A stretch of 64,000 nt of DNA from Escherichia coli (lineage in GTDB: Bacteria > Pseudomonadota > Gammaproteobacteria > Enterobacterales > Enterobacteriaceae). The position numbers were made by a program, and so were the translations under genes. The stretch lies in the NCBI RefSeq assembly GCF_003334785.1, contig NZ_QOWV01000003.1. The stretch is one strand, 5' to 3'. Positions 4,137 to 5,889 of this stretch are shown piece by piece (position 1 is the first letter of the stretch; each line of letters opens with the position of its first letter). The notes under the pieces were generated by a model. The model was given only the letters and a program-made list of their open reading frames with translations, did no database searches and was not told the origin of the DNA.

Positions 4137-4586
4137 ATGAAAAAGATTGCATTTGGCTGTGATCATGTCGGTTTCATTTTAAAACATGAAATAGTGGCAC
4201 ATTTAGTTGAGCGTGGCGTTGAAGTGATTGATAAAGGAACCTGGTCGTCAGAGCGTACTGATTATCCACATTACGCCAGTCAAGTCGCACTGGCTGTTGC
4301 TGGCGGAGAGGTTGATGGCGGGATTTTGATTTGTGGTACTGGCGTCGGTATTTCGATAGCGGCGAACAAGTTTGCCGGAATTCGCGCGGTCGTCTGTAGC
4401 GAACCTTATTCCGCGCAACTTTCGCGGCAGCATAACGACACCAACGTGCTGGCTTTTGGTTCACGAGTGGTTGGCCTCGAACTGGCAAAAATGATTGTGG
4501 ATGCGTGGCTGGGCGCACAGTACGAAGGCGGTCGTCATCAACAACGCGTGGAGGCGATTACGGCAATAGAGCAGCGGAGAAATTGA
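4137..4586 (+). CDS. rpiB: Ribose-5-phosphate isomerase B / allose-6-phosphate isomerase
   Basis: 149-aa ORF MKKIAFGCDHVGFILKHEIV..., RpiB/LacAB family; sequence recognised. Confidence 0.95.
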   Translation: MKKIAFGCDHVGFILKHEIVAHLVERGVEVIDKGTWSSERTDYPHYASQVALAVAGGEVDGGILICGTGVGISIAANKFAGIRAVVCSEPYSAQLSRQHNDTNVLAFGSRVVGLELAKMIVDAWLGAQYEGGRHQQRVEAITAIEQRRN

Positions 4587-4654
4587 GATTCATCCACTAC
4601 TTGCATGGATGAGTAATGATTAATGTGGATAGAGTTTCTTTTTGAGGTTGGCTA

Positions 4655-4984
4655 ATGAAACGCTTTCCGCTATTTCTTTTATTCACCCTGCTCACGCTGT
4701 CCACCGTTCCGGCCCAGGCCGATATTATCGACGACACCATTGGCAATATTCAGCAGGCGATTAATGACGCTTATAACCCTGACCGTGGGCGAGACTATGA
4801 AGATTCGCGCGACGACGGCTGGCAGCGTGAAGTGAGCGACGATCGGCGCAGACAATATGACGACCGCCGCCGCCAGTTTGAAGATCGCCGCAGGCAGCTG
4901 GACGATCGCCAGCGCCAGCTTGATCAGGAGCGTCGGCAACTGGAGGATGAAGAGCGGAGAATGGAAGATGAGTATGGGCGATGA
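4655..4984 (+). CDS. yjdP: Small secreted protein with Arg/Asp/Gln-rich repeats
   Basis: 109-aa ORF with signal peptide (MKRFPLFLLFTLLTLSTVPAQA) followed by repeated DDRRRQ/EDRRRQ units; matches my memory of YjdP. Confidence 0.75.
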   Translation: MKRFPLFLLFTLLTLSTVPAQADIIDDTIGNIQQAINDAYNPDRGRDYEDSRDDGWQREVSDDRRRQYDDRRRQFEDRRRQLDDRQRQLDQERRQLEDEERRMEDEYGR

Positions 4985-5004
4985 GGTTGGGTATGGAGCA
5001 GGCA

Positions 5005-5110
5005 TCGCCCCTCACCCCAATGGGGAGAGGGAGAAAACGAGCGCAATATTCAATATCGAGCACAATCGGTCCCCTCGCCCCTCTGGGGAGAGGGTTAGGG
5101 TGAGGGGGCC
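5005..5110. repeat. GC-rich imperfect palindromic intergenic repeat (boxC-like family), two copies
   Basis: cccctcaccccaatggggagaggg and cccctcgcccctctggggagagggttagggtgaggggg; same motif recurs at 32281..32310. Confidence 0.5.
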
Positions 5111-5130
5111 AGCGCGCACATTCCCTCTCA

Positions 5131-5889
5131 TCACGCCACCCCAATCTCCATCCCATCAAACCCCACCTCAAACCCTGACGGTAGTGCGTTTTCCATCAGC
5201 CACGCATCAAACTGGTGGCTGATATGGGTCAGAATCACCCGTGGCGAGCGGATAACCTGATTCAGCGCAAGCACGGTATTTAAATCACAGTGATTACGCG
5301 GTGCATCCGCGCGCGGCGGGTGACTGCAATCCATCACCATTACCTGCGGCTGATTATTGCGTAAAAATTTCAGCGTTTTTTCCGGCAAGCCTGCGGTGTC
5401 AGACAGCCACGCCACCCGGCTGTGTGCCGTTTCCAGCAGATAACCGAAGGTCAGTTTTGAGTGGTTGAGCGGCAGGGGCGTGACCTGTAACCCCTGCAAA
5501 TCAAACACCACAAACGGTTCCACCGTGTGGCTGAAATCAAGCAGGCCCGGATGTTTAAACAGATCGTCGCAGCCCTGTTCATCCGGCGGGCCGTAAACCG
5601 GGATCGGATCGCCAACGCCCCAGCGCAGCGGAAACAGCCCCTGGACGTGATCCATATGATAATGCGTCAGCAAAAACTGCTGGAACGATCCGGGCGACCA
5701 GCGATCGGCGAGATCGTGCAGCCCGGCGTCGATCAGGGTGATTGCGTCGTTAAACTTCACTACGCCGCTGCACGGTTGGCGGCGATACTGCGGCGAGCGC
5801 CGCGCTCTGGCGCAGGCCGCACACTCGCAGCCCCATGCCGGAACGCCCTGTGCGCCGCCGGTGCCGGTGAGCGTGAGGGTCAGGCTCAT
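5131..5889 (-). CDS. phnP: Phosphoribosyl 1,2-cyclic phosphate phosphodiesterase (metallo-beta-lactamase fold)
   Basis: 252-aa ORF with HxHxDH motif ([12 protein letters not shown]); recognised as PhnP. Confidence 0.93.

Follow-up and report, generated by a model that had tools for sequence, protein, structure and literature searches.

The spacer between the convergent genes yjdP and phnP, in the 64-kb stretch of Escherichia coli DNA that was analysed (referred to here as the window), is in all likelihood a decayed head-to-head pair of BoxC repeats, a dispensable element whose effect is structural and is exerted through deletion and inversion. The right copy is a known BoxC (PIT, TMECO) repeat, which has already been catalogued individually as copy no. 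22. What is new here is limited to details of the locus, namely the decayed partner, the deletion series, the flipped centre of the pair in a sister genus, and the origin of essentially the entire spacer from repeats.

Identity of the repeat

According to Holder et al. 2015, the repeat was first named BoxC and was re-described as PIT elements by Hoyne et al. 2000 (PMC4666352). The TMECO consensus is CCCTCNCCC-N3-6-GGGNGAGGG-N3-GGGNGAGGG, and 23 MG1655 copies have been catalogued (PMC4666352). Copy no. 22, CCCTCGCCCCTCTGGGGAGAGGGTTAGGGTGAGGGG, is listed at MG1655 4,314,285-4,314,320 on the plus strand as type A with a mismatch (PMC4666352, Table 1), at distances of 88 nt to yjdP and 23 nt to phnP (PMC4666352, supplement). 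The window is sequence of K-12 MG1655, and when genome positions in NC_000913.3 are converted to it by subtracting 4309213, positions 5072-5107 are identical to TMECO no. 22, letter for letter and by position. The initial annotation had called the motif at this site 'boxC-like', and for the right copy this label is correct, since it is TMECO no. 22 and matches the three-block consensus as a regular expression (5072-5106). The three-block consensus gave no match for the left unit (5009-31) or for the copy in the melR-melA region (32294-316), which have two blocks each. The 36-nt core of no. 22 recurs as nos. 9, 16 and 19; copy no. 9 lies in the fabI (envM)-ycjD spacer, and it was a paper on the sequence of envM that originally described BoxC (Bergler 1992).

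The repeat was expected to recur elsewhere in the genome, and all 23 published MG1655 copies were indeed re-extracted at their published coordinates (18 sites, this window included), every one of them intergenic. BLAST with the yjdP-phnP element finds 13-22 places per chromosome-sized E. coli record. Within the window, the motif CCCCTCRCCCC-N(2-6)-GGGGAGAGGG has two exact matches, at 5008-5031 and 5071-5094, and none in 100 dinucleotide-preserving shuffles, which bears out the claim that a GC-rich motif occurs twice between yjdP and phnP; the extension TTAGGGTGAGGGGG that had been ascribed to the second copy is found at 5095-5108. A looser two-block scan of the 64 kb (at most two mismatches, both strands) returned 5009-5031, 5072-5094 and, with one mismatch, 32294-32316, against a mean of 0.2 matches over 30 mononucleotide shuffles. 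The assignment to a family other than REP also stands, as positions 4985-5130 are devoid of the GCCGGATG core. No Rfam covariance model matched at E <= 1 on either strand of window 4400-5700, and a literature search for newer functional studies of BoxC/TMECO turned up only PMC4666352.

The spacer 4985-5130 is without any annotated feature in NC_000913.3. Two long spurious reading frames had been attributed to the repeat, and both exist: 4761..5171 on the minus strand, which overlaps yjdP and the 3' end of phnP, and 4857..5222 on the plus strand, which overlaps yjdP. The length of both is owed mainly to the crossing of real genes in other frames. The neighbouring yjdP is named 'DDRRRQL repeat protein' in other annotations and has DDRRRQ-type internal repeats in its 3' half (window 4840-4984); the gene varies in length between strains, those of M45 (357 nt) and Z0117EC0055 (366 nt) being longer than that of K-12 (330 nt).

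Table 1. Features of the yjdP-phnP and melR-melA spacers in the window, and yjdP-phnP spacer alleles of E. coli strains
Feature	Position in window	Strand	Description and basis
yjdP	4655-4984	+	convergent with phnP
phnP	5131-5889	-	convergent with yjdP
yjdP-phnP spacer	4985..5130		146 bp; essentially two abutting head-to-head BoxC units and their tails
Full left BoxC unit	4995..5044	-	head GCGCTCGTTTTCT (reverse complement of 5032-5044), remnant core, tail (4995-5007)
Left hairpin	5009..5031	-	inverted type-B core remnant; blocks 1 and 3 kept, middle block and CC (12 nt) lost
Full right BoxC unit	5049..5119 (about)	+	head TTCAATATCGAGCACAATCGGTC (5049-5071), core, tail GCCAGCGCGCAC; MAFFT and tail comparison
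BoxC core, type A, one mismatched triplet	5072..5107	+	CCCTCGCCC-CTCTG-GGGAGAGGG-TTA-GGGTGAGGG-G, three blocks; regular expression and identity with TMECO no. 22
Direct repeat TCGCCCCTC, copy 1	5005..5013	+	left end-point of the 70-bp O157:H7 deletion; alignments
Direct repeat TCGCCCCTC, copy 2	5075..5083	+	right end-point of the O157:H7 deletion; alignments
Degenerate BoxC remnant, melR-melA	32281..32325	+	GGTTTTCA-CCCTCTTCCC-AGA-GGGGCGAGGGG-AC
SCU-102 allele			spacer 158 bp; full pair
K-12 allele			spacer 146 bp; full pair minus 12 nt, between CCCC runs
B19695 allele			spacer 95 bp; full pair minus 63 nt, between CCCTC repeats; four-block hairpin left
O157:H7 allele			spacer 76 bp; 70 nt deleted, with the two TCGCCCCTC copies as end-points
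GF3-3 allele			spacer 41 bp; little more than last block and tail, GGGGCC(A/G)GCGCG
CFT073 and other B2 strains			spacer 27 bp; tail GGGGCC(A/G)GCGCG only; no hairpin

Anatomy of the two units

The flanks of type-A copies are conserved over about 20 nt on the 5' side and about 14 nt on the 3' side of the core (MAFFT alignment of 17 type-A copies), the head, of about 20 nt or more, ending in ...GnGCnCnnaCGGTC and the tail being like GAACAGGCCAGCAC. In type B the head ends in ...GTTTTCT and the tail is like CATCAGCGCGCAC (10 type-B copies). The second loop is TTA in the right unit (type A) and, read on its own strand, CCG in the intact left unit of strain SCU-102 (type B). On the minus strand the left core reads as block 1, a short loop and block 3, and its intact form, CCCCTCACCCCGGCCCTCTCCCCAATGGGGCGAGGG, is present at the same locus in SCU-102. 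The heads of the left and right units abut, and therefore the spacer is essentially two BoxC units placed head to head, an arrangement like that of the published pair 17+18 at lldD-trmL. This also settles how the 'two inverted copies' of the initial annotation are to be understood. As written, the phrase does not fit the literal matches, both of which lie on the plus strand and each of which is itself a palindrome, but in the biological sense it does, as the flanks show the left copy to be derived from an inverted minus-strand partner.

The site is like published BoxC in being intergenic and in combining its type-A unit with an inverted type-B unit, as in the five published pairs. Unlike in these, the left partner lacks the middle block and fails the consensus, and it is because this block is deleted that the published list counts the site as a single copy. 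A further difference is that the type-A core of the right unit is followed by a type-B-like tail, which an inversion of the centre of the pair would explain. Another unlisted and decayed head-to-head partner, the two-block remnant CCCCAAAGGGGAGAGGGGAC, is located in inverted orientation just upstream of TMECO no. 3, in the CP4-6 prophage (MG1655 about 282056-282075).

A further copy of the motif had been reported in the melR-melA intergenic region at 32281-32310. A copy is present there, but its core lies at 32294-32316 and it is a two-block remnant. Its heads are type B on the plus strand and type A (GTC) on the minus strand, and it can be read as a collapsed tail-to-tail pair, in which all that stood between the two first blocks would have been lost. 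A search of other strains for a complete pair at melR-melA found none, the length being that of K-12 in each E. coli row listed; in the B2 strain ATCC 25922 the remnant is further decayed. Its predicted fold is weak (z = -1.06).

The presumed ancestral pair and its derivatives in E. coli

Copy 1 together with the spacer is present, by BLAST, in 3127 of 5426 E. coli genomes, once per genome, and a second, weaker place was found only in some strains, in the Flag-2 cluster beside flgK. Copy 1 with the spacer was accordingly rejected as a repeated composite. In strain AST240 the Flag-2 flgK spacer holds a whole pair, in which a similar linker joins an inverted, complete type-B unit to a type-A unit. 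The similarity between the spacers is not strong evidence that the pair was copied as a unit, because part of it comes from the long conserved 5' head of type A. The allele expected to be ancestral at yjdP-phnP was written from the Flag-2 paralogue with the 12 nt restored, and was then used as a BLAST query. The predicted intact pair was found at yjdP-phnP in SCU-102, with 98% identity over 100% of the query, and about 71 of the 5426 E. coli genomes match it at 95% or more.

The shorter alleles are listed in table 1. The 27-bp spacer was seen in 4 of 25 evenly spaced BLAST rows, or roughly one in six E. coli genomes; sampling of the same kind puts the 41-bp spacer, very roughly, at one genome in six as well. 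The three deletions that could be resolved all lie between short direct repeats that come from the blocks of the element itself. Parsimony suggests that the direction of change was from the full pair to the K-12 form, which appears to be the commonest derivative and in which the long palindrome is broken into two small hairpins; in principle, a full partner could also be rebuilt by gene conversion from a BoxC copy elsewhere.

In a head-to-head A/B pair, a doublet of inverted hairpins, the outer blocks are complementary, and the intact pair forms an imperfect palindrome of ~110 nt, with about 32 paired bases in the single-strand hairpin. Folded as single-stranded DNA (ViennaRNA, Watson-Crick and GU pairs only), the full pair comes out as a single long hairpin at -39.3 kcal/mol (z = -6.2). 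For the K-12 allele the prediction is two separate hairpins at -22.8 kcal/mol (z = -2.3); a hairpin of 58 nt remains in the B19695 allele (z = -4.4), and the O157 allele has essentially no structure. As RNA, the K-12 spacer is predicted to fold stably on both strands, at -64.9 kcal/mol on one (z = -3.0) and at -63.8 kcal/mol on the other (z = -3.35).

Replication slippage and intolerance of palindromes (SbcCD) are features of E. coli. An intact BoxC pair, being a long imperfect palindrome, would be poorly tolerated, and its near-identical blocks of 9-10 nt would supply short direct and inverted repeats, between which slippage during replication or recombination may delete or flip parts of the element. 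The intact pair resembles the unstable, SbcCD-sensitive palindromes of E. coli in folding into one long hairpin, and the natural BoxC alleles, with their deletions between short direct repeats and their flipped centre, show the changes typical of such palindromes; unlike the engineered palindromes, BoxC is a natural dispersed repeat family. Sequence variability is raised around TMECO elements, and inverted pairs undergo partial deletions that leave a hairpin (PMC4666352). The suggestion in the initial annotation that the repeat is a structural element is correct only in this sense, as a DNA palindrome that drives rearrangement.

The junction in other genera

A search with PhnP, with one genome per species, returned 80 loci; they include no Escherichia, so E. 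albertii and E. fergusonii are outside the set. About 66 of the loci show yjdP and phnP in convergent arrangement. The two genes share 4 nt, a TTAA that holds both stop codons, in Kluyvera ascorbata and Citrobacter amalonaticus, and such an overlap looks common, being present in about 17 of the 80 loci by rough estimate. Because the genes overlap in other genera, the E. coli spacer appears to stem from repeats over essentially its whole length. BoxC occupies the junction in few lineages: a complete pair is present in three Pseudocitrobacter species, a single type-B unit in Leclercia sp. and Enterobacter cloacae M-7, and degenerate copies in a few others.

In the Pseudocitrobacter pair the A and B units are swapped relative to E. 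coli, and the tail on the phnP side, CAGCGCGCACATTCCC, has the same orientation in both. The centres of the Pseudocitrobacter and E. coli pairs are 81-82% identical when aligned flipped, versus 71-73% when aligned directly. The comparison suggests that the centre of the palindrome was inverted in place in one lineage, and such an inversion may be the reason why the type-A core of E. coli has a type-B-like tail; the alternative is that the pairs were inserted independently in opposite orientation. Genera whose PhnP proteins share only about 80% identity have near-identical cores. Simple decay is insufficient to account for this, which needs selection, homogenisation or recent spread and keeps alive the readings that involve a mobile element or homogenisation. 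The PhnP of Pseudocitrobacter is 94-96% identical to that of E. coli, and those of Citrobacter and Kluyvera are 81-84% identical; the high value for Pseudocitrobacter suggests either a close relationship or a transfer of the region.

Other BoxC sites

Four other sites show how BoxC varies between strains. The BoxC at pstB-pstA, which adjoins a true REP element, is missing from about half of the E. coli rows sampled. The strain-variable element at ilvC-ppiC measures 55 nt, which fits the length of 56 bp given for BoxC in the older literature. Strains without BoxC at adk-hemH (e.g. O157:H7) carry an unrelated 50-nt segment in place of the BoxC and a REP-like hairpin, so that, to judge from the alleles, the whole spacer is exchanged there and not simply deleted. 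The BoxC at zntA-tusA is nearly fixed. Among the 18 sites of K-12, seven lie between convergent genes and only two between divergent genes; the excess could reflect a role at 3' ends, or insertions could merely be tolerated there.

The E. coli matches in a plasmid collection were mostly to chromosome-sized or very large records, with partial matches in a few plasmids of ordinary size. Outside E. coli, most BoxC-like matches in the same collection fall in three genera, where large replicons often carry them (53 records for Sinorhizobium, 45 for Azospirillum and 34 for Rhizobium), and therefore related GC-rich three-block motifs exist well beyond the enterobacteria. A search of phages matched three odd records; each of the Campylobacter phages A18a and A11a (MG065686.1, MG065691.1) carries, at three places, a 42-nt stretch that matches the E. 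coli BoxC core exactly, which looks like foreign or contaminating sequence.

BoxC shares several features with the REP, BIME and REPIN elements: these are short GC-rich intergenic palindromes located mostly at the 3' ends of genes, and BoxC too comprises two subtypes in alternating, inverted orientation, the linkers being conserved both head to head and tail to tail. Unlike REP, BoxC has neither the GCCGGATG core nor a known recognition motif of the GTAG type, and unlike REPIN it has no RAYT transposase known to go with it. With about 23 copies in K-12, BoxC is far less numerous than REP.

Alternative explanations

What, then, brought the pair to this junction? It may be a non-autonomous mobile element comparable to a REPIN or MITE, inserted whole between once-overlapping genes by an enzyme acting in trans, in which case the E. 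coli and Pseudocitrobacter orientations would be independent insertions rather than a flip in situ; we regard this as unlikely. The generalisation that BoxC elements are REPIN-like mobile doublets, in which the inverted A/B pair would spread together with its conserved heads and tails, is likewise doubtful; on that reading the single copies and two-block hairpins of K-12, the left copy and the mel remnant among them, would be products of decay. Several observations are consistent with mobility. Heads and tails are conserved beyond the 36-nt core, A and B alternate in inverted pairs as in BIMEs and REPINs, a paralogous pair with a similar linker exists at another locus, the near-identical cores recur across genera, and the yjdP-phnP junction is filled in several genera in different configurations and empty in most. 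At pstB-pstA, moreover, the presence or absence of BoxC is a clean 92-nt difference flanked by an 8-nt direct repeat, AACCGTGT; however, a deletion between direct repeats would explain this pattern just as well, and a third AACCGTGT is located inside the element. No target-site duplication is visible at yjdP-phnP, and neither ilvC-ppiC, where the 55-nt element replaces 14 nt, nor the complex replacement at adk-hemH is a clean insertion. The element is essentially absent from phages and genuine plasmids, no link to mobile elements was found by Holder et al. (PMC4666352), and the unchanged orientation of the phnP-side tail in the two genera favours a flip of the centre.

The hairpins might instead serve the flanking genes, as a two-way terminator or a 3'-end protector of the convergent yjdP and phnP (phn operon) with REP-like stabilisation of mRNA, which appears quite improbable. 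Like rho-independent terminators, they are GC-rich stem-loops just downstream of a stop codon: the element begins 23 nt past that of phnP and 88 nt past that of yjdP, and the spacer RNA folds stably on both strands. The share of K-12 sites that lie between convergent genes and the presence of BoxC at the same junction in Pseudocitrobacter, Leclercia and Enterobacter cloacae M-7 would also agree with such a role. Unlike terminators, the hairpins have no U-tract, being followed directly by AGAAAACG and GCCAGCGC, and a scan of 4500-5400 for the rho-independent terminator consensus found no hairpin with a T-run in the spacer on either strand. In the part of the literature that PMC4666352 summarises, PIT/TMECO elements had neither promoter nor terminator activity (Hoyne & Maher 2002, cited in PMC4666352), the copies tested, according to the same summary, being others than no. 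22. In addition, the spacer is 27 bp long and free of hairpins in roughly one of six E. coli genomes, the left unit and spacer are lost in more than 40% of them, and the genes overlap by 4 nt in other genera. The terminator proposed in the initial annotation was rejected on these grounds, namely the negative scan and literature and the many strains and genera that live without the element, and we infer that the pair has no dedicated role in the expression of yjdP or phnP. A different cause of the instability itself has also been considered, in which the G-rich strand would form an intrastrand triplex in vivo, blocks 2 and 3 folding on block 1, and would stall replication. The right unit has the three required blocks, and CD and NMR have shown a stable triplex in vitro in oligonucleotides of both types, whether or not they contain the mismatched triplet (PMC4666352); copy no. 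22 is of type A and has the mismatch. Nevertheless, a duplex forms instead once the complementary strand is added, and DMS footprinting in vivo detected no protection (PMC4666352). All three deletions resolved at this locus end in direct repeats between blocks, as predicted by hairpin-assisted slippage, for which the third block is unneeded. The triplex is a very improbable cause.

Implications

The reading of the spacer as a decayed head-to-head BoxC pair leaves the understanding of phn or yjdP expression unchanged. For annotation, it means that the yjdP-phnP site should be labelled as a BoxC/TMECO repeat pair and that the reading frames 4761..5171 and 4857..5222 should be disregarded. If the mobile-doublet reading were true, it would make a defined family of mobile elements out of what has for 30 years been a 'repeat of unknown function'. 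At this locus, one ancestral palindromic pair appears to have given rise to at least five shorter alleles in E. coli and to a flipped version in a sister genus, which makes it a clear natural example of what was reported statistically in PMC4666352. The yjdP-phnP locus is therefore a convenient system for measuring palindrome-driven deletion and inversion.
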